A stretch of DNA of 56,667 nt from Rhizaria sp. SCN 62-66 (lineage: Eukaryota): positions 62,001-118,667 of the forward strand of contig MEDY01000034.1 of NCBI GenBank assembly GCA_001724265.1, given 5' to 3'. The notes under the pieces are model-generated. The model had not been told where the DNA came from. It worked only from the letters and a program-made list of their open reading frames with translations, and did no database searches. Made by a program: the position numbers and the translations under genes. Positions 1,002 through 51,244 of the stretch are shown here, piece after piece (position 1 is the stretch's first letter; each line of letters begins with the position of its first letter).

Positions 1002-4000
1002 TTATTGAGTGTCACTGTCCTGTTGGTGGCTATTTTGATACTTCATCTTGACCTCCGCGCGTCGGGCTTTACGCTCATCGCGTGTCTTGGCCTTCTTATC
1101 CTCCAGTGCACGCGAACGCAGTTCATCAATCACAGTAAAGGGAACATACATTTCACTCGAAGCAGTTGCCGCTCGTGCAGCTGGGAGACCAAGCTCGCGT
1201 AGCGTCACTGTGGCGTCGGTATGGAACTGCTGCATCACATCTCCAAAAAACGGCTTAGCATCACTGTTCAAGTGCAGCGACTGCAAGCATCCGTGCGTTG
1301 TGTCGAACGCTGAGGCGAAGTCGGGGTAGAGCAGTGCGGCCGCCGTGGGGTCGGAGAAACGCAACGCAACATCACTCGAGTTGCGAGCTTGCTTGGCGGC
1401 AGTGATTAAGTCAGTGTTACTCGCAGTCTACATTGTAGCAAGAGGAACATAACACGGAATGTGCGCCTAACAGCTCTGCACACCACTGCCATTCACCGCA
1501 CTGTTAGCAGCGGCGACACGCATCGGTGCGATAACAGTCGAGAACTCGCGACGAGTAGTCTTTATGTTGTTCTGCACACCGCCAGTGGTACTAGAGCGAC
1601 CAATGCTGGCGATCTTGCCGCTACCAGCAAACCACTGCTTGCTGGCGCCACCAGTCTTTAAGTCACCCGCATTTGCGTTGTCGCGACTCGTCTTATTGTC
1701 GCTGCCTGCCTTGTTATTGTTAGGCGCTACGGTCACATTGGCACCAGCAGCAGTGGCGTCAGCAGCACTCGCAGTAACAGCAGCGGCAGCGGCGGCGGCG
1801 GCGCGGTCGGCGGCCTCCCTGTCACGGCGGTTCAGCCGCGAGCCTTGCACGCGCTTCGCTGTGGCGTCAATCGCCGCGCTTGCAGTTGCAGCGCACTTGT
1901 ACGAAGTGTCCAAGGCATCACCTGCGGCAATGATTGACAGCTCGGACTGCAGCGACGCAGGGCGGAGGAATGCGGAAGCAGCACGGATACGACGCTTGTT
2001 CTCCGCGGCAGCAGCAGCAGCGGCGGCGGCTGAGAGGGGGGCTGGTGGGGGGAGCGCCGCGGCAGCAGCGGCTCCGGGGCGCAGCGGAGCGCGAGCAAAC
2101 GCGGGCAACTGTGCAACAACAGGAGGTGCGACGGCGCCCGCAGCGGCGTTTGCGGCGCTAGCACTGTTGATCGCGGCTTGCGCGCGCGCCTCTGCGTACC
2201 GCGCCAGGGGCTGCGACGCGAACATGAGCGTGGAGACCATGGGCGTCCGCTGCGGCCACATCCAGTGCGCCACGCGCACGCCGCGGAGCACCACCGGCGG
2301 CGCGTCGGGCGCGACGAAGCGGCGCACGCGGCGCGGAACTGCGTCGTAGAAGGCCTTGGCAGACTCGAGGCCCTGTTGAGTGCGCTGCAGCAGGACGCGC
2401 GCGGTGTTGAGCGACGCGGTGAGAGAGCGGCGCGGGGCGGGGGGCCAAGAAGTGACCGCGGCAGCGGCGGGGGTGTAAGGCGCCAAGGGCGCGGGCAGCG
2501 AAGACTGAACGAGTGCGGCAGCAGACGCGGCGTCGGGCGTTGACGAGAGCACAGCAGAGCAGTGGGCAAGGAAAGCAGCATCTGCAGTGAGCACGTTGTC
2601 GACATCAGACAGCTCCTTCAGGCTCTCTGTGATGCGGGACTGGGTCGTGTACAGCAGTCGCTTCAGGCCTGTGGCAAGGTCAGAGCCGCGGATCGATAAC
2701 GTGCCACTGGTTGACTGACGCAAATGGCCGAACAGCGGAGCGATTGCGTGGATGATGCCGTCCTGCAGCACCAAGTCAGGCGCATGCGCGGTGCCGCAAC
2801 GAATCTGGAGCTCGCGAGGCACGCCGATGTGCGGCTGTAGCGACGGGCCACCACGACCGCCAGCATGAGAGTTGCTGGTGTTGTTCTCAGCAAACTCAGT
2901 GTTTGCACGAATGTGACTGTCGAGCAAAAGCGCGAGCGCAGTGTGCATCTTGAGTTGCGCAGTACCAACGCGATCGCCAGTTACATCAACACGAACAACC
3001 GCGTTGGAGCCGTTGTTGGTGTTAGAAACACCAGCAGTGCTCCCATTGTTCCCGTTCTGACCGAAGGCGGACGGCGCTAAGCCTGCCTGCTGCAGAGTCA
3101 GATACTGCACAACGCCTTCCTCGAGAGACTGTTGCGGCAGCGACTTGGCGACAAAGTCCAATGTGTCCTCAGTCGCACCGCCCGCGGCCGCCACAGCTTC
3201 AGCAGCCTCCGCAGCCTCGGCCGCAATCTCAGCGTCGGACTGCACCGGGGGCGCAAAGAACCTGCTTCCCCCGCGCGCACCGCCGCGCGCGCCACCGAAG
3301 CGCGGAGGGGGTGCGCAGGCGGCCGCGTGCGCCGCGAGCACGGTGGCGCGCGTGGAGATCATGTGCGACAACAGCTGCGTGGCAGCGGCGGGGAGCGGCA
3401 CGCGGTGCAGCAGCTCCAGGGCGAGGTGCAGCATGCGGCTGTCGGGCTGCGGCAGCCGGATGGGCAGGCGCGACAGCAACTCGCTCGTGGAAAACGGCGC
3501 GTTATTGCGATTTGCGGAGCTGGTCGAGAAGTGCAGCAAAGGGGCCGCGGCGTCGCTCTCAGCGCTAGTGGACTTGCCGGTCGTGTTGAAGCCGAGCCTG
3601 GAGATGACTTTGTCCATCGCGCCCGCAAGCGTCACGGTTGGCGCGGCGCTGATCGGACTCGCAGCAGCAGACTCAGAGCCAGCGTCGTCGCTCCCGGGAA
3701 GAATGCTGGCCGCCACAACCGGCTTCTGCTGGTCACGGGACGAGGGACCATGGGCGAGCGCAGCGGCCGCGGCAGCCCAGTACATCCGCATCACGCCCTG
3801 CCACTCGCGCAGCACGAGGCGCGTGACGACGGCGTCGGCGTGCGGCGCGTACAGCGGGGGCAGGAACATCTCGTGGCTCTCGCCGCGCCACACGGCGTCC
3901 ATCATCGCAGTGTTCTCGTCAACAGCAACGCCGGCACGGGAAGCGAGAGAGGCACAGCGCATCACCGTAGACTTCTCAGCGAACACAGACCCGTGGCGGA

Positions 4001-7000
4001 CGCCGTTGTCGCGGAAAAGCGGCAGCTCGGCGGCCGACAGCAGCGTCGGCAGCTTGCCCGACTGCGCGCGGGTCCACGCCCCGTGCAGGTCGGCTGTGGC
4101 CCGGAACGCCGGATCCAGCTCCTGCCACGCCGCGGGGTCGAAGAACGGGTTGTGGTGGAACGGGATGACCGCGGGCAGTCCGGCAGCTTGGCCGAGAAAC
4201 GCAAACGCGCCCAGTGCATGGGTGTCGTGCCCGTGAGCCATGCACACCTGCATGTACGACATCCACAGCTTCACCGAGTCGGCGAGATTTGCCTTGAGCG
4301 CGGTCGACATGACCTTCTTAGCGTCTTCGACACCCGTGCTCTCACCGCCTGCAGCGACGGCCTGCATCAGCATCGAAAACAGGTCGCTGTTGACGGGCTC
4401 GCCCTCGGCCAGCGCCTTGTTCACCATCGCCAGCGCGCGCTCGACCTGGCCCGCCGCCGACACGGCGTGCAGACGCGCCTGCAGCGCCGACTCGTCGGTG
4501 ACACCGCCGATGGTGAGCGAGGCGCGCAGCCGCTCCAGCCCGGGGTCGTGGCTGGAGCCGTGGCTCTCGCCGCCGGAGCTGAGGAACGCGTCCTCGATCT
4601 CAGCGACCTCGCGCTGCTCCTTGGCGATGTTGTCCTGCAGCACCGAGTGCACGCGGTCGACCACGTCCGCGGGCGCGTTGTCGCGCGCGCAGATCGCCAG
4701 CACCTGCGTAAAGGTCACCGCGGTGGGCGCGACGTCCATGGACTTCATTTTACCGAGCAGCGCGACGGCGGCGCGCCACGTCGTGCAACACGACAGCGCG
4801 ACGTTGTATGCCACCGCGTCGGGCCCTTCGTGGCCGGCCTCGTCCGCCGCGCGCTCGAGCCAGCGGATGACCGTGAGCGCGCTCTCCTCCTCCCACTGGC
4901 CCGGCGCGCCGCCGTCGGCCAGCGCGGAGAGGACCTGCGTGTAGGTGTGCAGCGACGGCTCGTAACCGGCGCGGCGCAGCACGCTGAGCAGCGACAGCGC
5001 GGCGGCGGGGTCGCCCAGCGCGCGGCAGCGGACAATCGCGGCCGAGACGTTGGCCTCGGAGGCCTGCGCGCCGGGGCGGTTGCGCGCGATCTGCCGGTAC
5101 ACGAGCGCGACGAACGCGTCGTCGGCGCCGATGCGCAAGAGCTCCTCCAGCACGAGGTCGTACGTCATCGACGTCGGCTCGGGCCCGCCCGCGGCGTAAG
5201 GCGTGAAGTTGCCCGTCGGCAAACACGCGTCGAGGTTGAGCGCGCGCGTGCCCTCGGCGACGCGGCTCTGCGCGGCGGCCAGCGCGCCCGTGGCAACGCC
5301 GGCGCCGGGGAGCCCCAGCACGGCGCGCACGCGCTGCTCGTCCGTCGTCGCCGCGAAGCGCGTGTCGGACGCGCACGCGCGGCGCACAGTGGCGAGCTTC
5401 GCCGTCTGTGCGCGGGTGAGGCGGCGCGTCTCGGTGCTGCCGTCCTCACGCGTCAGAGTCACCGTCACGCGCGCGTCGTCGCTCGAGGCTGCGCCGACGT
5501 CCGCGTTGGCGGATGTGTCGGTCGTGAACAGGTCGGACTTGAGCTCGCGACAGTGCAGCTGCATGTCGCCCGCCACGAGCCCGCCCGGCAGAGCTGCCGC
5601 GACGGTCTGCAGCGCGGGGGCGCCGTACGCGCGCTCGATGCCGACCGTAAGCGAGGCGGCCGCGGCCGAGGGCAGTGCGGCGCCGAGCAGGGTCGGGTCC
5701 GCGTCGGGGTTCGCCGAGGCCAGCAGCGCGGCGCCGGGCAGCGAGCGCGCGAACGCGGTCTCGATCAGCGACACGAGCATCGCGGCGTGCCGCCGGTGCT
5801 GCTCGGAGCGCGCAAATGCGCGCGCAGCCGCCACGGACGCGGCGCGCGCGCCCGAGAGTGCGGCAATGGTGGTTGGCAGCGGCGCGAGCGCGCGGGGCAG
5901 CGAGGCCAAGAACGCGTTAAGGTGGTACGGCGACGGCGCGGGCGTGGTGAACTCGGTGCTGAACCGGCCCGAGAGCGCGTGCCACTGCTCTTGCAGCGGG
6001 AGGCGCGAGAGGGAAACGAGCGGAACCATGCTCACAACGGTCTCCGCGGGCGTTGTCGAGCTCGAAGCACTCTGCTGTTCGGAGCTCTCGCCTGCGGCCA
6101 TGGAAGCGCTTTTGTTCGACGTGATGCCGTGGCGCGCGTCCTCCTTGGCGGCGAACCGCATCGCGGCCTCGAGCTTCGAGTCGAGCATCACAGGCGGCGC
6201 GGCGTCGTCGAACGGGTTGCCCTCGTCCCAGCCATCCTCGGCAGCCAGCGCGCCCGCGCCTGGCGCGCCCGCGCCGCTCGCACCGTCAAAGTTAAGTGCA
6301 TTGCCATCGGTATGGGCGCCCGCGACGGCGCTGGCGAAGGCCGCAGCGTTGCTAGCCGTGACCGGCGCATACACCGTGGCTGCCGCAGCCGCCGACGCGC
6401 CTGTGGACACGGCGAGCACGTCGCCGTAGAGCGCCGCGTCGGGCTGCGCGTCGCCGTCCAGCAGCACCATGCGGCGCGCGGCGTAGGCGGACTCGTCGAG
6501 CGCGTGGTGCGAGTGCGCGACGGGCGCGGTAACGACGCAGCGCGGCACGGCGAGCGACGCCAGCAGCGTGTGCGCGAGCACGGGCCAGCGCATCTCGGCG
6601 CACAACCGCAACAGCGGCGTGTAGAGCGCCGCGTCGGCGTCGCGGCCCAGCGCCTGCGCCTCGGCCAGCAGCGAGAAGAGCGTCGACACGGCGTCCGGCA
6701 CGCGCACCTCGGGGCAGCGCGCGAGCCAGTCGTCGTGCGCCACGGCCGCGGGCGCCTGCGCCAGAGAGCTTTCGCCGCGGCGGTCGTCGAAGCGAGCGCG
6801 GACGCTGCGCATCTGTGCGTAGGCAAGCTCGTCCTCGGTCTCGGGCAGCAGCAGCGCCAGCGTGGGGATCGCGTCCTCGAGCGCGGCCACGTCAGCCACC
6901 GTCGGCACCGGGCAGGTGCTCCACGTGATCACCGCAGCGCTGGTCGCCCCGGCGTCGCGTGCACTCGGGATGGCGTCACTGTGGGCGTGACTGGGTGCGG

Positions 7001-8753
7001 CGCCGCTCGCCTCACTCGGGGCCGCGCGGCCCATCAGCTGGCAGTGCGCAGCCCAATCCGCAAGCGCGGTGAGGTAGTCGCGCGCGTCTGCGTTCTCTGG
7101 CAGCAGCAGCACGTGGGCAGCGAGCACGGGCCGCCACGCCGCGACGGCCGCCAACGATGGCTCATCCAGCCCGCTCGGCAGCGGCGCCGCGCGCGGCCAC
7201 AGCGGCCGCACCGCCGGCAACGCCGCGAAGGCCGCCGCGACGTCCACGTCCACGGCCGCGTCCGCGCCCGCGGCATCCTTGTGCGCGTGCGCGGGGAGGG
7301 CGGCGAGCGCGGCGGCGAAGGGCGAGGGGGAGAAGTAGCCCGCGCCGGGCGGGCAGACGGGCACGGCGGATGGCACGGCCTCGCGGGGCGCGGCGAGCAG
7401 CGCCGCGCACAGCGCAGTCACGGGCGAGAGCGCCTCCGCGAGCGGCTGCTGCAGCGCCGCGCCCGCGTCGTCGAACAGCGCCGTCCGCGCGCGCCCGTCG
7501 TCGGAAGACGCGTTGTTGTAGAACGACGTCAGCGGGCTGCTGCGGCCAAAGTCGTCAGCAGAGGCCGCGGCGCCCCCGCCGCCGCGGGAGGCGTTGCCGG
7601 TGATGAGGCCCAGCAGCGTGAGCCGGCCCTCGAGCTGGACCTTCTGGAAGACGTCCACCTCGTCGGGCGCCCAGTCCGCGGACGCGTGGTTGACGCAGCC
7701 GCTCTTCCTGAGCGCGGCGCCCGCGCTGGTGCCGAAGTCGCCGCGCGGGATGGCGTCCAACTAGCGCTCGGCGGCCTCGCGCGCGCGCTCGCGGGCCTCA
7801 ACCTCGGGCCCATGTTCGCGCCGCGCCGCCTCGGTCATCTCGGCCCACAGCCGGCCCAGCACGGCCGCGTACGTCGCCACGCATGGTACCAGGCGGAAGG
7901 TGCGCCGCATGGTGTTGAAGAGCTCGAGGGCGGCTGAAGTCTCGTCGTGGCGCAGCGCGTCGGCGATGGCGCGGTCAAACAGCGCGCCCAGCGCGGGGTC
8001 GTCCGCCTCCACGGCCAGGCACGGCAGTGCGCCCAGCGCCAGTGCGTCCGCGGGCAACGCGGCCTGAGACAGGGCCGCGTGGCTGAAGCGATTGGCGAGC
8101 GTGCCCGCGGTGACGTAGAGCGCCTGGCGCGAGCTGTGCCGCGACTGCCGCGCGGCGCGCGAGTCGTACGCGCCGCCGTCGAGCGCGCCGCCGTCGCCCG
8201 CGGCGTCCGTGTCGAACCGGTCCCGCGAGCGGGCTGAGGGCCCGAAAGAGTTGAGCGCCGGCCCCCAGAAGAAGGTGTCGACAGTGGACACGCGCGGCGC
8301 CAGCGGGTCCAGCGAGACGCGAGACGCGGGTTCGTCCTCGCGCTCGCCCAGCGGCCGCAGCGGCGGCGCGGTGGTGGCGGGGGCGGCAGCAGCGGGGGCG
8401 GCGACAGCGGGCGCAGCGACAGGGGCACTGGAGGAGAAGTGGCGCGCAGACGAGGCGTGCGCGTGCAGCGCGGCGCGGTGAGACGCGCGCTGGGAGAGCT
8501 CTTGGCCGGACACAGCGGTACTATCCACAAGCGTGCGCGCGGACATGAGCGGTGATGTTTGTGAATAAGCTGGAGCCTGAGTATGGACAGCCGCAGCTGA
8601 TGAACAAGAGAGAGGCGCTCCAGCAACGGACATGGACTGTACGGTGGGTGCGGAGGGGCCGTAGGCCAGGGACGAGGCCGCACCAAGGGTGGGCGTGCGT
8701 GAAATAAACGCGCGGGTGCCCAAAATGGGGCGGGCCAACAGCCTTGAGGTCAT
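1002..8753 (-). CDS. Giant pentatricopeptide-repeat protein (~2583 aa), probably mitochondrial, with a degenerate SMR-like domain; contains 3 in-frame TAG codons
   Basis: Track ORFs 7761..8774, 1467..7760 and 1002..1364 are in one frame, separated only by TAG at 7761-63, 1467-69 and 1428-30; the frame ends in TAA 1002-04. First ATG at 8753 gives MTSRLLARPILGTRAFISR (Arg/Ser-rich, presequence-like). PPR-like motifs: ALELFNTMRRTFRLVPCVATYAAVL; ALSLLSVLRRAGYEPSLHTYTQVLSAL; PDAVAYNVALSCC...LLGKMKSMDVAPTAVTFTQVL. Confidence 0.82.
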
Positions 8754-9261
8754 GAAGGCTGTGGGAGTGCTCACACAACGCAGCTTGTGAGCAGTTGGTG
8801 CGTGGGGTAAAAAGAGTGTGTGTAAAGAGTGTTACTCAGATTCTACAGAGGTTTAATTAAAGACAGTAAAATAAAAGTGACGTAAAAATCTGGGCATTTG
8901 GTGGTGTGACTATTGAACGAATATCTGTTAGGATATAGTTGCTTTCAGGTGAGGCACTTGTCACCCTCATCGACCGAGATGGGCAAGCTGGAAGATCTCG
9001 CCGTCGAGCAACGGATAGGGTGAAAAAAAAACCTATATTGCAGATCGAAACATCCGTCTACGCTTTTGTGTTTTGGGTAACACAGACCCCACGTCTGTTT
9101 TTATATGTTTTTCTTTTAATAAGTTCTCAACCTGATAATATTCTTGTCAAACCCGCTTCGTGTACAGGCTGTGTAGAAACTGACAAAACTCTTGCCATCG
9201 CGCCTCTCTTGCTAAGCAGCAACTCGCGTCATCGACAGTGAGAAGAGCTGCAGAGGTTAGG

Positions 9262-12200
9262 ATGGACCTGCCTGGTGATGGGGCTGCAACGGGTGAACTA
9301 GGCTTTGCTCCGCCAGTGACTGCCGCTTCGCCAAGCCCCCGCTACGCTCCTGCCCCACCCCACCTCAAGGAGATGCCTCACCGTCTTCGCGTCGAGGCCC
9401 CCACTGTCACAATGCCTGCAGAGAGTACAAAGCCGCATGCAGCGACTGAAGACGCGCTGTTTTTACCGATTACACCTTCGATTGGCGATGATATTGAGTC
9501 GCCGGAGCATCAAAATCAATCTAGACGCAACCCAACAACAGATGCCAGAGCACCTGCCGCTCACACCCACACCGCCAGCAGCCCTGGTTACGCGCCTCCA
9601 GTTCGCGTGAGCGTGAGCGTGCTGACGGTCGCCTCCCCGGCGCAGTCGCCCGTGGTGTCCCCGTCGCATTCGCAGCCGTTCGCGGCGCTGCCGATGCCCG
9701 AGTACGGCGCCGCGACGCTGACGGCCGCACCCAGCGAAGCTTCCGCAAGCACCAGCGACGTCGGCTCGCCGCGCAACGCCGCCGCCAGGGGCTACGGTTA
9801 CGGCGCGCACTACGCTAATAGCGCGGGGGACGCTGCGAGCGCGGGTCCGGCTAGCAGCCGAACCGCTGCGTCGGGCTACAGCAGCCGGCACACGGTGGGC
9901 TCGCCGTCGTCGCGGCCCGCGTCGCTGGCGTTTCCGCCGCTGATCGCCGCGTTGAACGCGCTCGCGATCGCGCCCGAGTCCGTCCCGCTGCCGCCCACGC
10001 CGCGCGCGCTACACCAGTGGTTCGCGGCCCGCGCCGCGTAGGATGCCGCAGCACGCGCTGAAGCGCGGGGACGGGCCGAGGCAGAGGCAGCGGCGGCGAG
10101 AGAGAAAGCCGCGCTGGTCAAGGACATCGGTGTCGTGATGACGTCGACGCTGGTCACAGTTGCTGCGACGCCAAATTTCCCCGTGCACAGCGGTGCTCAG
10201 AACAACAGCAACGTCCAGAGCTCCAAACAGAACTCGAGCAGTGGCATTACATCATCTGCAAGTGCGTCTGCAAACAGCGACAACAGCACCAACAACAGCA
10301 GCGGCGGCGGCAACAAGACTCCACGCACGACTGCACCGACTGCTCCTGTCGCCGGTCCTCTCGGCGCCAGCGCTGGGACGCCACGTGCGATGGCACCGAT
10401 GGTGCTCGTGTCCGTGGCCGCAGAAGCGCACGATGTCGCCCTCGGCCACCCCCCGCTCAGCCACGCGCAAGGCGACCACGCGAGCTCGCAGCCTGGCACG
10501 GTCGCGGTGGACGGCGAACCCGTGTCCGCGACCGCGGCCGCGCTCATTGCAGCGCACCGCGCGCAGCTGGCCGCCGCCAGCAAAGGCAGCAAAGGCAGCA
10601 GTAGAAGCAGCAGCGACACGACCAATGTGGGCGGAAACAGTGCGAGGCGTGTGGTTGCTCCTGGCCTTGCCGTCACAACGACTGCAGCCAATGTAAGCGG
10701 TCGTTTGAATGCTAATGCGACTCTGATGCCGTTTCGCTCGCGCTACACAATGATGCCACCTGCGCCTGCAAACAGCGTCAACAACAGCGGAAATGCAATG
10801 GCGAACCAAAGTGACGCAAAGACAACGGAGCAGCAACAAGGCTCTTTAAGTGCTAAATCTGCGTTGAATGTCAACCCCGCTAAGTCTATCTTCGCGAGTC
10901 CCAAGCTTGCTGCGCTTGCCGCGCTCGGCTCCGCGAGCAGTGGCAACGGCAACTTCGGGAGCACAAGCACCATTCTGCCCCTCTCCAGCCCCAATGCGAA
11001 CGACGAGGCAAGCAACGCTGAGATCGGCACTACGAGTCACGGAGTTCACACTGAAACCGCCGCGCGCCCTCCCCTCTTGACGGCTGCGGGGGGCGCGAAC
11101 GCAGGCGCTGGCGTCACTGCTGGTGCCGGCTCTGGGGTGTTACACTCCGCTCTCCGGAGACAGCCAAACAAGCCTCCCGCTTCGGACACCGTCACCGCGG
11201 TCACCGTTGCCGCAGCGTCTGCGGGCGTAGCCGACGCACCGGCTACTTTTAGCGGCATGCATCATGATGAGAACGCAGACGGTGAACGACAGAGTGTCGC
11301 TACACTCGGTGGTCTGATGGGACATGGACTATTTGCCGACTCCGCAGCGCAAGAAGAACAGTATCTTGATCGGAATCACCAGCACAACAACGGCATGTTG
11401 CTGTCAGACATGTTCTCTGGGTCTGCACATGTCGGAGCTCGGCACGGCAACGACAGTGCTGAGTCTGGTGCTGGGTGTGGGTTCGAGTCAGTCGAGTATG
11501 ACTCACTCGACATGGCGCTTGCGTCAGCCTACCCCGTCCCCCCAGCCGCTCACAGTCCGGCCTACAGCTGCAGTCTCTTTCCGAGCAACGGACTCGCCGG
11601 TGCTACAGGGAGTATTGCAGCGAGCGGCAGCCGCTCTAGCGTGCTACTTGCAGCGGCGTCGGCGTCCCTGCACGCGCGGCCAACGCCGGCTAAACCGAAG
11701 GCAAGCAGCCTGCTGCCAACGACAGCAGCGGCGACTCCTGCGCGGCCCGCCGCGGGAAGCGCCGCCACCGCCACGAGGCAGCGCAGTGCGAAAAAGCCAG
11801 ACAATGATGCGAGCAGCGAAGTCAAGGGTCCAGATGCCGCTGTGGCTCCGGAAGCTGTTAAAGAGCTGTCTGATGCCACAGCGCATGGTGATGCTCAGAG
11901 CAAGGTTGCAGGTGGAAGTGTGAAGAGTGACGCAAAGGGCAAAGCGACTGAGAGCTCTGCAGTTGACGCCGCGTCGCTCACAGTCGACCACGGGCCCGTT
12001 GTGCCGTACCGCTCGGCGAACGCGTCCCACGGTCACTCTGCTCGCGACAAATCGACCCATAGTCACGGTGTGGAACACCAGAAAGATCAGGATCAGCATC
12101 ATCCGCAAGCGAAGCCTCGCACCCGCACCTCTGCTGCTGTTGCGCTTCCTGAAGCTGCAGCTGAGATTAGTCTCAACGACTTGCTGCTGCCCGACTTTGC

Positions 12201-13296
12201 GCCTGCCACGCTGTCGCCCGCCGAAGCCGCCGCCGCTGCGGCAGCCGCGCGCGCGTATGGGCCCAAGCGCGGTCGCGGAGCCTCCACCTTGCCTTCCGCG
12301 ACGAAAGGCGCGAGCGCGGCGTCTCAAACAAGAGTGGCTGGTGCAAGCGCTCTTGATAGAAATGCAGAGTTGGGACAAGATGGCGGAAAGATCAAAAGCC
12401 GCAATGTGAGCCCACTTAGCAGCAGTAAGTCGACCCGTGCGCTATTGCCAATGCGCGGTCCGCTGTTGCTCCAGTTTCCCAAAACTGAGCCGACAACTGT
12501 AACTGCGCCTGACGCCGTGGCGAAGAGCTGGGCGACGGCCAACAACAACGCACAGCGCCAGGCCGCTGACACTGACAACCACGGTGCCGATGGCACTTGC
12601 GAAGATGAGGCTGTTGGTAAGCACAGCACTTTTCTTCGTGCCAACGCGGCCAAATTCTCGTACGCGTTCCAGCAACAGCGCAGTTCTCCTGCGAAGGCAC
12701 CCGCAAACAGCGGTGCCAGCACAAGCACAGCGACTGCGATCAAGCCGAGTGTTGCTGCGGCTGCGGCGGCCGCTGCGAAGGCCGATTGCGGTCGGCCGCG
12801 GCGCCGCCAGTCCGCGATTCTGGCCGGCCCGCAGTCGGGCTGGGGCGCGGACATGGCGCTGGACTTCAGCCAGTTCAAGGCGCCGCCGCCTGAGGAGCCC
12901 GCAAGCGTCGCTGACGCTGCGCCTGTGGCGGATGCAGCAGCGATTTCTCCGGTGGCAGTTACGGATGTTGCGGCAGATTCTAAGGCAACGGGTGTCACTG
13001 ATGCTGCGAATGATAGCGCCACCAGCAAGAGGGCTGTTGGCACGACGAGTGGCGCGTTCGCGTTCTACCAGAACCAGGCAGCCACGCTGTCTGCGCAGCG
13101 CACCAGCGGTGCGACGCACCGGCTGCTGCGAGGTCCCCACGTCGCCGTCGCGCCAATGACCGTGGGCGCCGCCCAGCTGGGGCTGGGGCCGACGCCGGCG
13201 GCGGCGAATGGGCTGTCTCCGTATAACTACAAGTACCAGCAAGCGGTCGCTCCAGCGGGTACGGCTGGTCAACAACGCAAGAACAAATAGCTATGA
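9262..13296 (+). CDS. Uncharacterised Ala/Ser/Pro-rich low-complexity protein (~1344 aa); 2 in-frame TAG codons
   Basis: ATG at 9262. ORFs 9238..10041 and 10135..13290 are in frame and joined across TAG 10039-41 (FAARAA*DAAARAEARGRAEAEAAAAREK). The last TAG (13288-90) is followed by CTA and TGA (13294-96), then AT-rich sequence. Confidence 0.7.
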
Positions 13297-13463
13297 CGAC
13301 ATCAAGCGTCAGCTCAAATTTATCTAGTTTTTCTTTACTTTAGTTCAACATCATACTTATCGAATACACTATCATTGTATTGAAACTTAAAACGTGTGTA
13401 TTACTGTAAATATCGTCCCTTCAATTGATTTGCGGATCAACATGTGCGACTATGTCTTAAAAT

Positions 13464-16400
13464 TTACTCGGTATCCGTTTCGATCGTAATCGCCTTAGCA
13501 ATGTTGCGGCCGGCCCTGATAAACGCTTCCATGCGCTCCTTTTTGGTCTTGGCCTTTTCAGCAAACTGGCCCGCCGCCTCCGCAGCCTTGGCTGCAGTGC
13601 AGTCGAGGTCCACCTCGAGGTGCTCGTGCCGCACCGTCATCGGCGTCGACAGCATCGGCCGAGCGCTCTCGGCTGCGAAATCGCCCTCGGCCTCCGCAAC
13701 GCTGCGCGCGAACGCGGCCGCGCCCGCGATGGCCGCTGCTGATAGCCCGGGACGCGACTTCGGCCTGGGCGTTACCGGCTGCAGTCGCGCCTGCTGTCCG
13801 GGCTCCGCCGCGAGCTGGGCGAAGAGCTGCTGCTGCCGCAGTGAGGCGCGCTGCCGCAGCTCCTCCGCGGTCGGCGGCGCGGCGGACAGCGGCACGCCCA
13901 TGTCTGGCGTCTTGCTCACAACAACGGAGCCGCCGCCGCGGCCGCCGCGAGCCCCACCGCGAGCGCCGCCACGTCCACGGATGCTGCCGCCGCGCCCGCG
14001 GAAGCCGCCGCGGTTGCGCACACTGGCGGCGACGGCGGCGGCGGCGGCCGTGCGCTGTGCCTGCAGGGACACCGACACCGGTATAGGCGCAAGTGCGGGT
14101 GATGCCTCGAGAATGAAGCGGTTTGGTGGGCGCCTCGCCGCACCTGCCTGTGCTAGGGTAATCTGTGGCAACGACCCCTCAGGCGCAGCTGCGTAGCCGT
14201 GATCGGTGTCGATGGTATCGTCAGCAAAGTCGATCGCGTCGTCGGCGCCGCCGCCGTAGTCGAACTCGTGTAGGCTGTCGCTGCGCGCGTCAAAAGAGAC
14301 GTGCCTGCCGCCGGCGTGGGGCGGGGAAGTCAGGCCGCCGCCTCCGCGCGCCGCCTCGACCTCGGCGAACGCGCTGCTGCCCCAGCCGCGAGCGCCGTAG
14401 TCGCCTCCTGGGCCGCCGCTGACGTCCACACTCTCGAACTCAAACGAGCGGCTGGTGTTGGCCGAGCCGGGTGACGTAAAGCGGTACTCGGTAGCGCTGA
14501 TGTTTGTCGCGCGCGTGCGGTCGCTATGGTGAGCTGATGTCTGCAGCGAAGCCAGCGCCGGTGACGCTGAGTGTGACAGTGACAACGACGAGTGAGTCGA
14601 TGAAGACGACGACGACAACGCTGACGCTGAGGGCGCTGAGCTGTACAACGCGTCCCTGTACTGCGCGGCCGCGGTCCTCCCCACGGCTGCCGCCGCGACG
14701 GCCGCGGCAAGCCCGTCTTGGTAGCCACTGGTGTAGCGCGCCGCGCCCTGATCCACCGCGGAGGCCGCGCGCTCGGCGTCAGCGAGCACATCGGCCAGCG
14801 GCCGCGGCGCCCAGCGCGGCGCCCAGGACGCGCGGGACGCGGGGCTGTAGCCGCCACTGCCGGGGGGCCGCGGCTGCCGCTGCCGCGACTCATTGTAGTC
14901 GTTGTAATTGCGGGCGGAGAGTGGGGCGGAGTCTGGCGGGTACTTAGATGCCGTGTAAGTAGGGCTGCGCGGGTTGTACTCCGGGTTGTACGTATCCTCA
15001 GCCGCCGCGTGCGGACTCGGCAGCCTTGCCTCGGCGCTCTCGCGCTGCTGCTTGGCCTCCTCCTCCTCCTGTTTATGCGCTGCGGCGCGCTTGGCGGCCG
15101 CGATCGACAGATGCAACAGTTCGCGCGCCTGTCGCGCGCTCTCGGCTGCGAGCTCCACCACAGCAGACGCGGCGGTGCCGCGGGCGGCGGCCTCGCTGCC
15201 GCTGTCATCCCCGTTGCCGAGCGCATCGCCGTACTTCACGTCGCTGTCGCTGTCGCTGTTGTCGACGTCGTCGTCGGCGGCCTCGCCCAGCTCCTGCCGC
15301 AGCGCACGCGCACGCGCACGCGCCTCGGCCGCGGCGGCCTGCGCACGCGCGCGCGGCCGGGCCGCCGCGGCGACGGCGGCGCTGGTCCGCGCGGCTGCAG
15401 CGGCGAGCTCGGCAACCGTCCCGGACCGCTCCGTGACCGTGAGCTGCGCGCGGGTCGCCCTGTCGAGCCGGGCGAAGCCGTCGGGCGAGAGCAAGGCCGC
15501 CGTCTCCGAGTCGTCCTCGTCGCCGGACCCGCGGCCGTAGCTGCTGCCGGCGTCGCTGTCTTCGCCGCTGCCGCCGCCGCCGCCGCTCTCGTCGCCGCTG
15601 CTGTCGCTCTCGCCGCGCGGCGCAAAGCCGCCAGGGCCGAACTCGCCCGGGGCGAAGCGACCGTTGGTGCCGAAGTGACCGTGGGCGGCGGGGTAGCCGG
15701 GCAGCCACGGCGCGGGCGCGAACGCGCCGGGCACTGGGAACGGGTAAGGGCCGTATGGGTAAGGGGGGTAGCCGCCCATGTATGGGGCTTGTGGTGGCGC
15801 GAAGTACGGACTGAACGGTGGGAACGCGCCGCCGCCTCCGGGCCCAAGCGGCTGGGCAGCGCCGGAAGTGCTGGAGCCGGCGGCGCTCGCCCCTGGCGGG
15901 ACCAGGACAAAGCGGAACCCCGTGCTGTCGATGGTCGGCACGAGCACGGGCTGCCCTGCCTGTCGCTGCTGTTGCTGCGCAGTGCGGGGGCGCGCGCCCT
16001 GCTTATGCGTGTCGTCGTCTGCGTCAGTCACGTGGGTTGCGGGCCTCTTGAGTCCTTTGCCGCCCGCGCGCGCCCCCTGCTGCTGCAGCTGCTGCGGGTG
16101 CTGCTGCTGCAGATGTGGAAAGAGCTGGCTGTACTGGCTCTGAGCAAGCTGCTGCTGCCATTGCGCTGCTGCTGCCGCTAGCTGATGCTGCTGCTGTTGC
16201 TGTTGCTGCTGCTGTTGTTGCTGTTGTTGCTGCTGTAGTGCAAGCAGCAGCGGCAGAGTCGCGTCAGTTGTCGGTAGTGCTGTTGATGCGGCTGACTGTG
16301 AACCGTTGGGCAGCGAGAAAGTGAAGCCGCCCCACGACACCGTCGGCCGCGCAGCGCCGCCGCCGCCCCCGGGCTTTCCCTCTGCATCGCTGTCACTGTC

Positions 16401-19400: not shown

Positions 19401-19679
19401 GGAATCGGCGTCCCGGGCCGGCGGGGCGGATTGCCGGTGCTGAAAGGGCTTGGCTGCAGAAGTCGACGCGGCGACGGCGGGCTTGGACGAAGGCGCAGGA
19501 AGAGGGTTTTCCTTTAACGCGCCTGTGGAGCCATGCAAAAGCACAGAGAGGCCGCCAGAAAGACTATCCAGAATATCTGTGGAGGTACCGGCTGGCGCTG
19601 CATCATTTATGTCGAGATTGATGGGATCCGATGTGGATCGACGGCGGGAGCGGACAATAAGTCCGCTGGACTTGCTCAT
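13464..19679 (-). CDS. Uncharacterised Gln/Ala-rich low-complexity protein (~2071 aa); 1 in-frame TAG inside a poly-Gln tract
   Basis: ORFs 18609..19679 and 13464..18353 share a frame. I translated 18608-18354 by hand and it is stop-free (QQAQLEAQTQAELQHLSLEGPEPQQQQQGRG...). Ends in TAA 13464-66. Confidence 0.75.
16184..16234 (-). repeat. CAG/CAA trinucleotide tract encoding poly-Gln
   Basis: The + strand reads (ctg/ttg)n and corresponds to the long Q run (LLLALQQQQ...QHQ) in the 13464-19679 gene. Confidence 0.8.
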
Positions 19680-20189
19680 CTGTGAGTTAGAATCAAATCA
19701 AGGCCTTATGTTCGATCCCCGAAGCTGAAGATGAACTTATAAAAGGATTCAGCAGAAATGTTAGATTTAACACTAGTTGGTCAATTTTATCATAATATTA
19801 CGATAGATTCAAGTCGAATTATGAGTAGAATTTTTGATCTCTGTCGAAGTTCTTGCTGACCACAAGTTGGCGCCAACACAGCCAACGGCTATGAAATGTC
19901 AACAAGTGCGGATGTACGTGTACTGTATCTAGTTCTGCGGCAAATACTTCTATAAAAACAGTGTTTATTAATAAACAATTCCTATACTACAAACGATACT
20001 GTGTTTCTTTTTGACTTCTTTCTCTTTCCTCCGTCTTTCTTTAAAAAACAAGCGGAGATGCTACTCATGCTCGTAGCCTCCTATCGCTCAGTTTCCGCTG
20101 CATAACAACTTAGAAGCAAAGTATCTTCTCATAAAATTGATGTTTCCTGGACCATGATTGTACAAACGGACATGTTGGCGCTTGTGTAC

Positions 20190-29200: not shown

Positions 29201-30041
29201 GCTGTTCCTGTAAAGCCATGCGCAACGCAGTGAGAGTTGTGGCAGCCTCCGAGCTACCAGGCGGAGCTGTGGCGGCGGCAGTGGCGGCTTTGGTCAGCGA
29301 TGACGGCATTGGCGCTGTTAGAAAGCGAGTCGCACCAGGAAACAGGCGCTGGTGCGGTGGAACTGCGGGGACTTGTGGGCCGCGTGTGTGTTGCGCCTGG
29401 CGATAGTGTTGCGGTTGTTGCTGGTATGGCTGCTGCTGATACGAGTAGATGTTCCCTGTATTGCTGTTGTTTTCAGTGCTGTAAGGTAGGTACGCCATGC
29501 GGGACGACTGCATGGCGCGCACAAACTCGGTGTGAGATGTTGCAGGCTAATGCTGTGGCGGCGGACTGGCCTGGGAAGAAGGCATGGCTGTGTTATGATA
29601 AGGCTTTGCTCCTGGAGGAAGTCCGCCGCGTTCAGCAAGGTACGAGGCAGGTGTCCTGATGAAACCTTGTGCAGGCTGAACCAAAAGTTCGAAATGCAAA
29701 GTAAAAGTATTCCTTCAAGTTAGGCACTGCTAAAAGCTAAAACAAAACCCAGGAGTAAACTTGCACAGATTACAACAACAACAAAAACTTACCTGTGATT
29801 GTGAGAACTGAGTGAACCCGTCGTGTTGGGGTGGGGGCGAGTAATCGTCCCGGTACATACCGCCATGCTGCGAGCGCGGATAGCCTTGCGAGAGCGGCGG
29901 GGCAGTAGGACTAGCTTGAGATAAGCCCCTGTACTGGGAGAGTGGAGGCGCTTGCGATTGAGAGATGTCTGTATAACGAGAATATTGGTCCTGCCCTTGA
30001 GTCAGTGGCAGCCAGTTTCCATCCTGATCTCGGCCGTCCAT
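23277..30041 (-). CDS. Uncharacterised ~2215-aa protein: SQ/TQ-rich N-terminus, Ala-rich coiled-coil centre, disordered C-terminus; 2 exons; 2 in-frame TAG codons
   Basis: Exon 1 is 30041-29793, intron 29792-29676 (GTAAGT...TTCAG, phase 0), exon 2 is 29675-23277. TAG at 29547-49 (SPPPQH*PATSH) and 26979-81 (AAIAQC*ATAREVSS). Ends in TGA 23277-79. Confidence 0.72.
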
Positions 30042-30239
30042 TCTGCGGACGGGAGAGAGGCTAGTAGGGACTTGAATAAATACAAAAATTAGATTTAGTG
30101 ATCAAGAAGAGAAAATATAAATCGTTCTTGTTATGTATCGGTCTCTTCAAGTTGATTCGTTATTTTTGTTTAAGTCGTCACAAGGCGCGAACACCAGTTT
30201 GCGTTTCACCACAAACGCACTGCACTGAGCAACCGCATA

Positions 30240-36200: not shown

Positions 36201-38064
36201 GGTCGCAATCGCGCCGAGCTCGTGCTGAATTGACCTGCGGACGTCGGTGCCGCGGTTGCTGCCACTCGCCGCCGTCGCAGCGGCGCGCAGTGAGGTGGCA
36301 GCAGCGGTCGCGGCGAGCGCGGCGAGCGCGCGCGTGACTGGAGAGACAGCGGACACCGGCGCGGTCGCACCAGCGGCAGCAGTCGGATCACTGGTAGCTT
36401 CATCCGCCACTGAAGCGGAGGCAGACGGCGATGCAAACGCGTGGATGAGCAAGGACAGCAGAGTGGTGTAGTAAGCGGCCTCGCCAGCCGGCGTGAGCAG
36501 CACGCGCGGGGCGGCGGGGACCGCGGTGGCGGCGCCGGCCACAGCGGCAGCGACTGCGGCGGTGGCGGCGGCGACGGCGAGCGCCATCGCGTCCGTGTGC
36601 AGCGGCGAGCCCGTGACAGACACAGCCGTGATGCCAGAGCTGCTGCTGCCGGCCGGCGCGCTCGACGTAGTTGCTGTAGACGGCGTGGCGGCACTCACGC
36701 CGTACTGCTGGAGCAAGCGCGTCAGCGTGATGTGCAGGCGACCGTGGGCCAGGTGGGTGTACTCCAAGTGACTGTGAGCACTCTCGGCATCGCCACCATC
36801 GCCGGAGTCGCCGTCACCAGCCGGGCCACCGGCCTCGCCCGATCCGTCAGCAGAGCCCGGCTTAGCGCCGCGGCGCTTGCTCGCGCGATCTGACGTGAAA
36901 GACGCCGCAGCGACTGCGCTCGCGGACACTGTGGGGAACAACGAGTGCAAGCGCACAATCGGCACTGCGACAACGCTCTCACTCGCGCTCGCATTCGCAT
37001 TCGCACTGGAGCTGTTGATGTTGCTGCTGCTGTTGCTGCTGTTGTTGTGGCTGGAAGTGACCGTGGGCAGCGCGAAGAGCGCGGGTCGGGGCGCGAACAG
37101 CGCCTCGGGCCCCGCGCGCGGGGGCAGCAGCGTGCCGCTGCGGGCCGCGGCGAAGGCCGTAGCGGCCGCGGGGGCGGTGGGCGCGAGCGGCGCGGCGAGG
37201 GAGCAGAGGTGCAGCAGCGCGGCGGGCAGCGGGGACTGGGTGGCGGCGGGGGAGCTCGAGGTAGTCGGATCGGCGCGATTGTTGTTGCCTTGGGCGAGGG
37301 AAGAAAGAGGCGGGTCGCAGAGAGTGCGCAAGAAAGTGATCACGGGCGTGGTCGTGACGAGAGACGGGAAACGCAACAGCGACTGTACAATGGAGAAAGG
37401 AGGGTTGAGGCAGAGCGCGACACAGAGTTGCGTGAGAAATAAAGCAGCAGTGTAGCGGTGTTAGTAGCACAAAGATATGACGCGGTAGGATTGCTGATGT
37501 TAACAACAAACGTACCGAGTGGAAGATTAAGTCAAGTGTGTTTGTCAGCAACTCATCGTAGAACACCGCGATCACCGCAGGCGACAACATGCTGAGGCTG
37601 CTCCTGCTTGTTGCAGAGGTGCTGTCGCTCTCGTGCACTGCACTCATGTTGCGAGTGCTGCTCGCGCTGGCGGACGCGGAAATGCCCCGCATGGACACAA
37701 TATCAATCTCGTCGACACTGCTAGTCTGTATGTTCGTCGCTCCGGTGTTCGCAGAGAGCGCACTGCCATCGCTCGACCCGCTGAAGCTAGAGCTCGAGGG
37801 CTCGTCATCGACTATCTCGATCAGTGGACGCGGCGTGGGAGCGCTGGGATTAGCTAGTACTGCAGTGGCAACAGTCGGCGTGGCCGCCTGTGTTGGGGCC
37901 AGCGTCTGCGCGCGCTCAAGAAATGGGAATTTGACATGGTGTGAAGGCGGGATGAGCAGGCTCTGGAGCTGTGACAGTGCCTCGGTCGCGGCAGCGGCTG
38001 AGCGGGCATCCGCGAGCATGCGCAAGGCATCGGCCAGCGCCCGCATTCCAGCCGTAGTGGCCAT
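30240..38064 (-). CDS. TELO2: Telomere length regulation protein TEL2/TELO2 (TTT PIKK co-chaperone), greatly expanded (~2563 aa), 2 exons
   Basis: Exon 1 is 38064-37516, intron 37515-37383 (GTACGT...TACAG), exon 2 is 37382-30240 ending in TAA. C-terminal TEL2-like motifs: acidic SDSDLSDFDDED; PVPRTLRAFALAL...ALTVAEGLIR; SMQDRLDILDAMAAAAHELA; NKFAPVAYRCFF; DPMLLSRTIHTL; RTHTEATIRRAAIVAF. Confidence 0.8.
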
Positions 38065-49750: not shown

Positions 49751-51244
49751 TTACCGGCTCAGAATGTCGGCGAGGTCGATGCTGAGGAGCTTCACGGGGG
49801 CCAACGCCTCCCCGATGACCTTCATCCTCGCGAGCGTGGGCTCCGTCTTGTCCTCCGTCGCCACGGCCTTAACCTCCACCATCCAGTGCTGGCCGCGCGC
49901 CAGCTTCGCCAGGTGCGGCGCGGCGCCCGGGAACGGCAGCACGTAGCGGCGGCTCACGGTCACTTCGATGGCGTCGGCGACAGCGAAGCGGAAGCCGTAG
50001 GTGATGTATTCGAAGTCAAGCCGGCGCCCCATGAACCGCAGCAGCGACTCGAAGTTGCGCCCCACGTAGCACGAGTCAACCAGCCGCACGTTCTTCTGGG
50101 GCTGCACCGCGCCCAGGAAGTCGAGCCGCCAGTGGAGACCCGGGAGTAGCGCGCGGCTGGGCGGCTGCACGTGCATGCGCGCGAGCGCCAGCGCGGCCCG
50201 CGCGGCCAGCGAGACGGGCGCCGGCCGCAGCGGCGCGGTCAGCACAGCCGAGAGCGGCACTGCGCCGGCGCAGTCGCTGCCCACCGTCGCCAGACCAGCG
50301 TTCACGCCCGTGGTCGCTGCGCTGGCGTTCGCGGGCGCGTTGGCGGTGGAGGCGGCGGCGGCGTTGGCGGCGGAGGTGTCCGCGCCGGCGGGCGGAGCGA
50401 GCAAGGCTGCGGCAGGGCCCGCCGCGCCGCCACCGCCCGCCGCCGCCGCCGCCGGCTGCGGGCCGGTGACTGTGGCCGCCGCTGTGGCTGCCGACTGCTG
50501 CTGCTGTGAGGTTGCGGGGGCGGGGAGCGGGAGGTCGCTCCAGAAAAGCTCCAGGTCCGCAAAGGAGCGGGGGCAGCCCACGGCGGCCGCGGCGTAGACG
50601 GGGGCCGCGCCGAACGCGCCGACGCCAGCGCCGCCGAAGCTCAGCCCGCTCGCGCTCGCGCTGTCTGAGCTATTGAATGCGTCAGCGAGAGGGAGCAGGA
50701 GCGCGGGCGCGGGCGCCGGCAGCGGCAGCGCCATCTCGGCCCGCAGCTCGGCCTGCGCGGGCGAGAGCGTGGGGAGCGCGAAGGCCAGCGCGGCGGCCTC
50801 GGTCCCGCCCGCGGAGCCCGCGGCCGCGGTCTTGGCGGCGGCTGTGGCGGCGGCCGAGTCGGCGACCGCGTAGACCCTGTGGTAGGCGCAGAAGGGGACG
50901 AGGCGGACATCAACGTGCGCGGCCGTGTCGGGGAAGACAAAGCTCGCTGTGAGCTCGTCGTTTTCGTCGTTGACGCCCTCTTGCTGGCGCGCGCGGAGCC
51001 GCGTGAGCAGGGCGGCCTCGGGAACCGGGAGACGAACGACGAGGAGCCCATCGTCGCTGTCGGTCGACTGCATCATCGATAGCTTCTGCAGCAGCGTGTA
51101 CAGAGGCATGTTCTACACCGTGTCGGCCTGCTCGCGGGTAAGGTTGGGTGGGATGACGCCCAGTGGCACGACGCTGTGCATCGCGCAGACCTGCAGGCGG
51201 GGGCCGCCCGCCGCGGACTTGATCGCCGCGATCTCGGACGCCAT
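49751..51244 (-). CDS. MED18: Mediator subunit 18 (497 aa, large Ala-rich insert); 1 in-frame TAG
   Basis: C-terminus NFESLLRFMGRRLDFEYITYGFRF...WMVEVKAVATED...IGEALAPVKLLSID matches Med18. The frame extends upstream through TAG 51113-15 to ATG 51244 (MASEIAAIK...LQVCAMHSVVP...EQADTV*NMPLYTLLQKL). TAA stop. Confidence 0.78.

Follow-up and report, generated by a model that had tools for sequence, protein, structure and literature searches.

UAG as a probable sense codon beside UAA and UGA stops in the nuclear code of an uncultured eukaryote

Known codes in which UAG and UAA differ

Nuclear codes that give UAG and UAA different meanings are few; those named in the source excerpts are a rhizarian, Iotanema, Scotinosphaera and some ciliates. 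In the fornicate Iotanema spirale, UAG specifies Gln whilst UAA and UGA are stops, an assignment supported by transcriptome-wide alignments and by a T32G change in the GTS motif of eRF1 (PMC5304391, in excerpt). The eRF1 sites that this paper discusses are the GTS, NIKS and YxCxxxF motifs and positions Leu69 and Thr32. The uncultured rhizarian exLh reads UAG as Leu, as assigned from alignments (same excerpt). Phyllopharyngean ciliates decode UAG as Leu or Gln; their suppressor tRNA genes have been found and UAG use is widespread (PMC11687900, in excerpt). UAA is also the preferred stop in UAG-reassigned ciliates (PMC11687900) and in the two lineages described in 2017 (PMC5304391), according to the same partial texts. 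A precedent for UAG = Glu comes from an oligohymenophorean ciliate species, in which UAA encodes Lys (PMC10553269 and PMC11687900, in excerpt).

We analysed a single 57-kb stretch of one metagenome contig (56,667 nucleotides; hereafter the window), in which UAG is probably a sense codon, with UAA and UGA as stops, in the nuclear code of an uncultured eukaryote. UAG-only reassignment is a kind of change already known, and the present one is a further case. Set against the source excerpts, it has in common with Iotanema the reassignment of UAG alone, UAA as the dominant stop, and a predicted tRNA(CUA) and altered eRF1. It differs in its basis, one 57-kb metagenome contig here as opposed to a transcriptome, and in the organism, which is GC-rich (window GC 0.50–0.75) and whose nearest relative by CBF protein is 40% identical. 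As with exLh, the UAG-only change occurs in an uncultured protist for which environmental or single-cell data are the sole source; the present data speak neither for nor against Leu. UAA is the main stop (10 of 14 gene ends), as in the phyllopharyngean ciliates, whereas UAG accounts for few codons (about 0.06%). The UAR = Gln codes, that of Amoeboaphelidium protococcarum among them, likewise show a UAG change outside ciliates, but UAA is reassigned there and not here; in the oligohymenophorean ciliate it is Lys, whilst here it is the main stop. A full-text literature search for a matching UAG-only case found no such report, which is consistent with the original prediction of a possibly undescribed case.

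In-frame TAG codons in the window

The genes that carry in-frame TAGs, the nine TAGs themselves and a TAG-free comparison gene are as follows.

1002..8753, minus strand: g1, long PPR-repeat protein (Pfam PPR_2 and PPR_long); ends in TAA
7761..7763, minus strand: TAG, codon 331 of g1; same-phase GC3 and coding score on both sides
1467..1469, minus strand: TAG near the 3′ end of g1 (Cys-TAG-Ala); score rank 1 on both sides, next TAA or TGA 155 codons on
1428..1430, minus strand: TAG 13 codons after 1467 in g1; 142 open codons follow
9259..13296, plus strand: g2, low-complexity protein (ORF and coding score); ends in TGA
10039..10041, plus strand: TAG, codon 261 of g2; in-frame score rank 1 on both sides
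13288..13290, plus strand: TAG two codons before the TGA of g2; downstream GC 0.32, in-frame score −25.1
13464..19679, minus strand: g3, Gln/Ala-rich low-complexity protein (ORF and coding score); ends in TAA
18609..18611, minus strand: TAG in a CAG/CAA (poly-Gln) run by sequence context, codon 357 of g3
23277..29585, minus strand: g4, Ala/Ser/Thr-rich protein with a Cys-Glu repeat motif; 2145 codons without TAA or TGA, ends in TGA
26979..26981, minus strand: TAG in mid-g4, after Cys, where the repeat motif has Glu; open frame on both sides
29547..29549, minus strand: TAG 12 codons after the first ATG of g4; upstream score −36.9, rank 4 of 6 frames
49751..51244, minus strand: Med18-like gene (Pfam Med18 at residues 379–469); ends in TAA
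51113..51115, minus strand: TAG, codon 44 of the Med18-like gene; coding-type GC upstream
30240..37460, minus strand: TAG-free Tel2-like comparison gene, 2406 codons, ends in TAA; training set of the codon model

Five genes have TAG within coding frames that are intact in other respects, and none in the window depends on it as a stop. The codon tally was taken over 15 ORF pieces (14,950 codons) and 14 gene ends. Nine TAGs, no TAA and no TGA occur in frame in these pieces, whilst the two other same-strand frames hold 459 TGA, 113 TAA and 97 TAG (an off-frame TGA/TAG ratio of 4.7), so that a frame extended by chance would meet TGA first. The core of the original prediction, that UAG is sense and UAA and UGA are stops, fits every test made within the window. 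Its nine TAGs were found at the predicted places, strands and frames, followed by TTG, GCG, ACT, GAT, CTA, CAA, CCT, GCG and AAC; these codons all differ except for GCG, which occurs twice, in agreement with its statement that no readthrough motif is shared. Programmed stop-codon readthrough was considered and rejected: the TAGs lie 44–2442 codons into their ORFs, up to three occur in one gene, and they have no common downstream context.

As had also been predicted, coding-like sequence follows eight of the nine TAGs, with the next in-frame TAA or TGA 142 to 2253 codons off and a GC content of 0.53–0.73 in the following 150 nt. All nine had been offered as evidence of a sense codon; seven (1428, 1467, 7761, 10039, 18609, 26979 and 51113) lie inside coding sequence and retain that value, whereas two do not count, 13288 being at a gene end and 29547 probably in a 5′ UTR. 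At each of the seven, the same frame is the best-scoring or the sole open one on either side, and in a six-frame coding score the TAG frame ranks first on both sides at 1428, 1467, 7761 and 10039. The five TAG-bearing ORFs (497–2583 codons) contain no frameshift, as claimed; the companion claim of no internal TAA or TGA in any gene holds only after removal of five AT-rich introns, which belong to the pelota, CBF and Era genes.

Use of the codon is sparse and uneven. TAG makes up 8–9 of 14,950 codons and corresponds to about 1.3% of Gln or Glu codons in the ORF pieces; it is confined to five long, poorly conserved and mostly low-complexity genes. No TAG occurs in the 6,352 codons of the remaining pieces, which comprise the Tel2-like, CBF, MORN, M20 peptidase, transaldolase and Era genes and two more; a uniform rate would give this with P about 0.03. 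A weakly used or recent reassignment would fit this rarity and restriction.

Gene ends and the TAG before the stop of g2

The 14 gene ends comprise ten TAA, four TGA and no TAG, an outcome with P 0.02–0.04 if 20–25% of stops were TAG. After these terminal codons the next in-frame stop lies within 4–56 codons and the sequence is AT-rich, with GC 0.29–0.55. A code of the NCBI table 6 type (UAR = Gln) does not fit, since TAA closes 10 of the 14 genes and is never found in frame.

The TAG at 13288, followed two codons later by TGA as originally described, behaves as a gene end, with UTR-like sequence after it, and may be either a sense codon or a real stop. It would suit a context-dependent code of the ambiguous sort found in Condylostoma or Blastocrithidia, with UAG mostly sense yet a terminator at genuine mRNA ends. 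With only 14 gene ends there is room for a minority of TAG stops; nonetheless none of the 14 needs TAG, and the TGA two codons past 13288 accounts for termination alone. We consider a context-dependent code improbable.

TAG codons of g1 and the possibility of their removal from mRNA

The TAG at 7761 is the strongest case among the nine. Over 60 codons on each side GC3 is 0.88–1.0 in the same phase, and the coding score ranks first of six on both sides. The next in-frame ATG lies 242 codons on (GC3 0.94), and after the TAG at 18609 in g3 there are 153 codons (GC3 0.84) before the next ATG, so that both stretches would be translatable only if TAG is read. g1 has a presequence-like N-terminus. 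Strain differences in g1 comprise six synonymous and two non-synonymous changes (P about 0.006–0.013 against neutrality), which shows that the gene, with its three TAGs, is under purifying selection.

Downstream of the TAG at 1428 the in-frame score ranks first, at +23.0, the best other frame reaching −21.9. This TAG and that at 1467 both fall within a 54-nt in-frame stretch, GTGCAG...TGTAG, whose 3′ part is pyrimidine-rich, and a mini-intron is here a possible alternative. More generally, the TAGs might never reach the ribosome, being spliced out in short unconventional in-frame introns or altered by U-to-C RNA editing. A 36-nt in-frame GT...CAG stretch can also be drawn at 26979, and the 9-mer TGTTAGGCG is common to two TAG sites. 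In a poly(A) metatranscriptome (X5) there are contigs that match g1 and g2 in part; among the matches listed none crosses a TAG. Against this, the five introns checked (pelota, CBF and Era) measure 129–202 nt, with GC 0.31–0.45 and begin GTACGT, GTATGT or GTACGC (GTAYG[TC]). The 54-nt stretch is unlike them, and nothing resembling them was found in the sequence flanking the TAGs. Additionally, G/C-ending codons directly flank the TAGs at 7761 and 10039 on both sides, and we know of no nuclear U-to-C editing of such a kind. Removal of the TAGs before translation is, in our judgement, the least probable of the explanations weighed. X5 has no depth in the g1–g2 intergenic bin (8637–9303), where the DNA runs do have depth, although missing cover of this sort proves nothing.

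Support from independent contigs and strains

Contigs of another study, separately assembled (X3), carry the TAGs at 7761, 10039, 13288 and 18609 with no differences; over g2 one such contig covers 9852–11123, spanning 10039. A strain contig (X4, 18270–19330) retains the TAG at 18609 despite four differences in about 1 kb. The TAGs are therefore not assembly errors. A metagenome scan with the N-terminus of g1 returned one locus, an identical contig of 2840 nt (L001, window 6960–9799) in which 7761 is again unchanged; L001 may be the same data as the X3 contig, since length and ends match. Among the contigs listed none bridges 1467. No strain difference falls in a TAG among the 40 of 81 that are listed, and contigs dating from 2017 and 2025 show the TAGs unaltered.

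These data bear on a further explanation, that of a standard code in which the genes concerned are decaying or dispensable and each TAG is a nonsense allele, a premature stop persisting in this population. The original prediction gave too much weight to the disruption being by TAG only: of the nonsense mutations open to these GC3-rich genes, 68% yield TAG, and a result of eight TAGs in eight has P about 0.05. The restriction of the TAGs to poorly conserved low-complexity genes would also suit nonsense alleles, as would the strain differences in g2 and g3 (7 synonymous and 12 non-synonymous), which indicate little constraint. However, 5 of 14 genes would have been broken by 7–8 changes with no frameshift and no TAA or TGA amongst them, the purifying selection on g1 (six of eight differences synonymous) would be unexpected, and a core Mediator subunit, the product of the Med18-like gene, would be truncated by a stop at codon 44. 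The persistence of the TAGs between the 2017 and 2025 contigs and the absence of any gene in the window ending in TAG also speak against nonsense alleles, which we regard as highly improbable.

Genes g2, g3, g4 and the Med18-like gene

In g2 the TAG at 10039 is followed by 1085 codons before the next TAA or TGA, and in g3 that at 18609 by 1715 codons before the next stop. A Pfam search of both proteins found no family. In g4, 868 codons separate the first ATG from the TAG at 26979, and the next stop is 1234 codons on; codon-usage signal is weak at this site, which falls outside the stretch compared with other contigs. The other TAG of g4, at 29547, has non-coding-looking sequence upstream and a second ATG 11 codons past it, and is probably in or adjoining the 5′ UTR, or else ambiguous.

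In the Med18-like gene, the 43 codons between the ATG at 51244 and the TAG have GC1/2/3 values of 0.70/0.51/0.93, and the public 43-residue ORF P0249 is exactly the piece cut at the TAG. A word search with the Med18-like protein over 8000 candidates scored nothing, and HMMER over 1.84 billion representatives gave five matches, namely its own two fragments and three distant proteins, none of them at the TAG. An AlphaFold2 model made with no alignment has a mean pLDDT of 39, so membership of the N-terminus in the fold is not readable from it.

Identity of the residue at UAG

No homologue aligning across any TAG was found in word, HMMER or metagenome searches, and comparison therefore supports no particular residue. 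Pfam found no family on the TAG flanks at E up to 10, and in a neighbour-residue likelihood model no residue stood out (top sums −3.7 to +0.8 bits). The internal hints conflict: the poly-Gln run at 18609 points to Gln, whilst the Cys-Glu motif at 26979 points to Glu. The latter hint arises because the TAG follows a Cys and Glu comes next after 8 of the 12 other Cys residues in the g4 ORF, the pair being written TGY GAG/GAA, a single step away from TGT TAG. We estimate the chances of Gln as about even; Glu is possible but doubtful, and any other residue would be less expected still. No nuclear genome is listed with UAG = Glu alongside a UAA stop in the excerpts of PMC5304391 and PMC11687900. 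That this uncultured eukaryotic lineage reassigned UAG independently, to Glu and not Gln, and kept UAA as its main stop is an unlikely outcome.

Nature of the organism

A search with the CBF/Mak21 protein returned the protein itself, two relatives at 40% and 38% identity, and then plants, chytrids and animals at 26–40%, in a labelled sample that lacks most protist groups; Atlas searches returned broad taxa only. Transaldolase relatives on record are 67–86% identical; a scan of genome contigs for relatives with this protein gave 80 bacterial loci at 57–64% identity and no relative, and a scan of viral contigs for DNA of relatives found nothing. The organism is GC-rich and intron-poor, is without a close sequenced relative and recurs in wastewater-type samples; GC ranges from 0.50 to 0.75 across the window. 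Its DNA is best represented in runs X1–X3, and the longest contig recorded for it is about 178 kb. A trypanosomatid origin, suggested by the long and seemingly intron-less ORFs, was dropped once introns were seen. The gene structure, with GC-rich exons and introns of 129–202 nt, is one that we take to be unlike that of ciliates.

Proposed mechanism and implications

In the mechanism we propose, UAG would be decoded as an amino acid, UAA would serve as the main stop and UGA would also terminate. By analogy with other UAG-only lineages (PMC5304391, in excerpt), a tRNA with a CUA anticodon would pair with UAG, not with UAA, and insert the residue, and recognition of UAG by eRF1 would be lost or weakened. 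The window contains no tRNA(CUA), the lone ARAGORN call being a doubtful tRNA-Ala(AGC) inside the Tel2-like ORF, and an Rfam search of it gave no matches; of the eRF1 family it holds only the paralogue pelota.

Each further independent case of UAG-only reassignment tests the idea that a CUA tRNA captures UAG while eRF1 keeps UAA. In a GC-rich genome such as this one, mutation pressure should often make TAG from CAG or GAG. Public databases already contain pieces of these genes cut by gene callers that assume the standard code, the Med18 fragment P0249 being an example; proteomes and bins of this lineage are mis-annotated as a result.

Gene content and origin of the DNA

The window, with a GC content of 0.50–0.75 across 2-kb bins, is GC-rich nuclear DNA of a eukaryote; since bioreactor, wastewater and activated-sludge runs (several studies, 2015–2025) carry near-identical DNA, it is a metagenome contig of an uncultured organism. 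Translation across two internal TAA/TGA stops made AT-rich, T-rich insertions visible, and five ordinary spliceosomal introns were defined within the genes for pelota, CBF/Mak21 and the Era-like protein (129–202 nt, GC 0.31–0.45; starting with GTACGT, GTATGT or GTACGC and finishing with CAG or TAG). A trypanosomatid origin, first suggested by very long open reading frames (ORFs), was dropped because of these introns. Both introns and UTRs (GC 0.29–0.55 after stops) are far richer in AT than exons. Gene products were assigned by Pfam search, which returned no family for three long low-complexity genes (g2–g4).

1002–8753 (−), g1, PPR protein; TAGs at 1428, 1467 and 7761
9259–13296 (+), g2; TAGs at 10039 and 13288
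13464–19679 (−), g3; TAG at 18609
23277–29585 (−), g4; TAGs at 26979 and 29547
49754–51244 (−), Med18-like protein; TAG at 51113
54915–55928 (+), transaldolase
Elsewhere in the window: Tel2-like protein, CBF/Mak21, pelota, MORN-repeat protein, Era-type GTPase (two exons) and M20 peptidase

The divergent genes g1 and g2 are separated by a spacer of ~500 nt (8754–9258). Contigs of a poly(A) metatranscriptome run (X5) have zero depth in the bin 8637–9303, where DNA runs gave coverage, although missing coverage of this kind proves nothing.

In-frame TAG codons and gene ends

The original prediction held that UAG is a nuclear sense codon whilst UAA and UGA still terminate, and all nine TAGs on which it was built were found at their positions and strands, with the following codons as described. 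Across 15 uninterrupted ORF pieces (14,950 codons), in-frame stops comprise nine TAG, no TAA and no TGA; the other two frames of the same strand contain 459 TGA, 113 TAA and 97 TAG, so a frame open by accident would meet TGA long before TAG. The claim that genes lack internal TAA and TGA is correct for these pieces, but holds for whole genes only with the five AT-rich introns removed. The 14 gene ends use TAA (10) or TGA (4) and none uses TAG; the last exon of pelota was checked separately. TAA is thus the main stop despite a coding GC3 often >0.9. The TAGs are sharply unlike real gene ends, as tabulated.

Sequence following terminal stops and in-frame TAGs
Class; next stop in frame; GC in next 150 nt
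14 terminal stops; 4–56 codons; 0.29–0.55
8 of 9 TAGs; 142–2253 codons (TAA/TGA); 0.53–0.73

Individual sites were examined with a codon-usage model trained on TAG-free genes, scoring all six frames around every TAG. At 1428, 1467, 7761 and 10039, the frame containing the TAG outscores the other five both upstream and downstream. GC3 is 0.88–1.0 either side of 7761, in one phase. The first in-frame ATG downstream lies 242 codons beyond 7761 (GC3 0.94 in between) and 153 codons beyond 18609 (GC3 0.84); these stretches look translated, which would be achievable only if the TAG is read. The 43 codons from ATG 51244 to TAG 51113 have GC1/2/3 values of 0.70/0.51/0.93, placing the start of the Med18-like gene upstream of its TAG. 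In g4, which has weak codon bias and 2145 codons free of in-frame TAA/TGA, TAG 26979 lies 868 codons past the first ATG and 1234 ahead of the stop. Two sites were discounted: 13288 is followed two codons on by the terminal TGA of g2 and then by UTR-like sequence (GC 0.32), and the sequence upstream of 29547 looks non-coding (score −36.9, rank 4 of 6), with ATGs 12 codons before and 11 after. This leaves seven robust sites, spread over five genes, at which a TAG is confirmed inside a coding frame.

The 9-mer TGTTAGGCG (Cys-TAG-Ala) is common to sites 1467 and 26979, where it occupies 1464–1472 (−) and 26976–26984 (−); a third copy lies at 1718–1726 (+). Three copies compare with 0.34 expected and were reached in 1 of 100 shuffles; the sharing may reflect chance or a codon context preference.

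The TAGs in independent data

Contigs of four runs were compared with positions 1300–21290, a stretch that ends before 26979, 29547 and 51113. Contigs of X3, a run from a different study, match 6960–9799, 9852–11123, 12988–14520 and 17452–19634 with zero differences; they span TAGs 7761, 10039, 13288 and 18609, making assembly or base-calling error unlikely at these four sites. A metagenome-scan contig (L001) is also identical to 6960–9799 and may be the same data as the X3 contig there. X4, from a slightly different strain, retains TAG 18609 amongst four differences in 18270–19330. None of the 40 differences listed, of 81, falls in a TAG codon, and none of the matches listed from the four runs spans 1428 or 1467.

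In public protein collections, the Med18-like gene occurs only as fragments: a 43-residue N-terminal ‘protein’ (P0249), exactly the piece from ATG 51244 to TAG 51113, and a 184-residue C-terminal one (P0248). Gene calling under the standard code would be expected to divide the gene in this way. Within 51245–51445 (−), a run of pyrimidines closed by CAG (…TTTCTTTTCTCTTTTCAG), ~30 nt before the Med18-like ATG, resembles the 3′ terminus of an intron in the 5′ UTR.

Alternatives to a sense codon

The TAGs could instead be nonsense mutations in broken genes. Their restriction to TAG is weaker evidence against this than it seems, because 68% of possible nonsense mutations in these GC3-rich genes yield TAG (P ~0.05 for eight of eight). 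All TAGs lie in poorly conserved genes, none occurring in the 6,352 codons of TAG-free pieces (P ~0.03 at a uniform rate), and g2 and g3 show little constraint (7 synonymous and 12 non-synonymous differences). Four points weigh more than the TAG-only argument. Breakage would affect five of the 14 genes, although these contain zero frameshifts and zero TAA/TGA; strain differences in g1, with three TAGs, are 6 synonymous to 2 non-synonymous, where ~27–31% synonymous is expected by chance (P 0.006–0.013); the Med18-like gene, encoding a core Mediator subunit, would end early, at codon 44; and the absence of TAG from the 14 gene ends has P 0.02–0.04 if TAG made up 20–25% of stops. The seven internal TAGs and this absence support the predicted code, and UAG is probably a sense codon with UAA and UGA as terminators.

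Removal of the TAGs from RNA by splicing or editing was also considered. G/C-ending codons reach TAGs 7761 and 10039 from either side, and nothing resembling the five checked introns lies near the TAGs. The case against splicing is weakest at 1428 and 1467, both within 54 nt of in-frame sequence (GTGCAG...TGTAG) whose 3′ part is rich in pyrimidines; this stretch is not half as long as the shortest checked intron and has no GTAYG, and a mini-intron here is rather unlikely. X5 contigs match parts of g1 and g2, none of the matches listed crossing a TAG. Stop-codon readthrough does not fit TAGs that lie deep in ORFs, number as many as three in one gene and lack a common context, in agreement with the absence of a shared readthrough motif noted in the original prediction.

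Candidate residues and proposed decoding

Neither a metagenome scan with the g1 N-terminus nor word and HMMER searches with the Med18-like protein found homologs aligned across a TAG, and Pfam gave zero matches on the flanks. TAG 18609 interrupts a CAG/CAA run (…QQQQQQLQ-TAG-QQAQ…) and is one transition from CAG, a context that suggests Gln. TAG 26979 points differently, suggesting Glu: it comes after Cys in g4, where Glu follows 8 of 12 other Cys, the pairs (TGY GAG/GAA) frequently have spacings of 7, 14 or 21 residues, and a single substitution separates TGT TAG from TGT GAG. A likelihood model based on neighbouring residues, applied to all nine sites, was uninformative. Considering precedents, we estimate an even chance for Gln, a smaller one for Glu and a smaller one still for all other residues. 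The Cys-Glu pair recurs across g4 residues 414–950 (Glu after 8 of 13 Cys, versus 5.3% Glu overall), and the Cys spacing resembles that of a heptad (coiled-coil) repeat in which Cys takes a core position.

The proposed decoder would be a tRNA with anticodon CUA, acting alongside an eRF1 with an altered N-domain. Pánek et al. (PMC5304391) argue that this anticodon is required of any tRNA that reads UAG but not UAA, and report that the eRF1 N-domain tends to be changed in such lineages (T32G in Iotanema; Ala at the Leu69 position in a rhizarian with a UAG change). The window contains no CUA tRNA gene by ARAGORN or Rfam, and no eRF1 gene by Pfam, which identified the paralog pelota. An ARAGORN 95-nt tRNA-Ala(AGC) at 33202–33296 (+), opposite the Tel2-like ORF and lacking an Rfam tRNA match at gathering score, is probably a false call.

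Lineage and known UAG codes

Searching with the CBF/Mak21 domain returned itself, two environmental relatives (40% and 38% identity), then plants, chytrids and animals (26–40%). Transaldolase has database relatives at 67–86% identity (including 86, 78, 73, 72 and 71%), some on contigs of 37–185 kb, suggesting that several uncultured organisms form a related group. Among named sequences, those closest to it come from bacteria and various eukaryotes (~60–65%), the nearest being bacterial.

A UAR = Gln code, as described for Amoeboaphelidium and others, does not fit, since TAA terminates here. UAG-only changes are described for Iotanema (Gln) and rhizarian exLh (Leu) (PMC5304391), for Scotinosphaera (Ser) and Protocruzia (Gln), and for phyllopharyngean ciliates (Leu, and Gln twice; PMC11687900), which favour UAA as stop, as do the gene ends here. 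No published report matching this organism was found in the full main texts of open-access articles. Reassignment of UAG alone is thus a code change of known kind, of which the window probably adds a further case.
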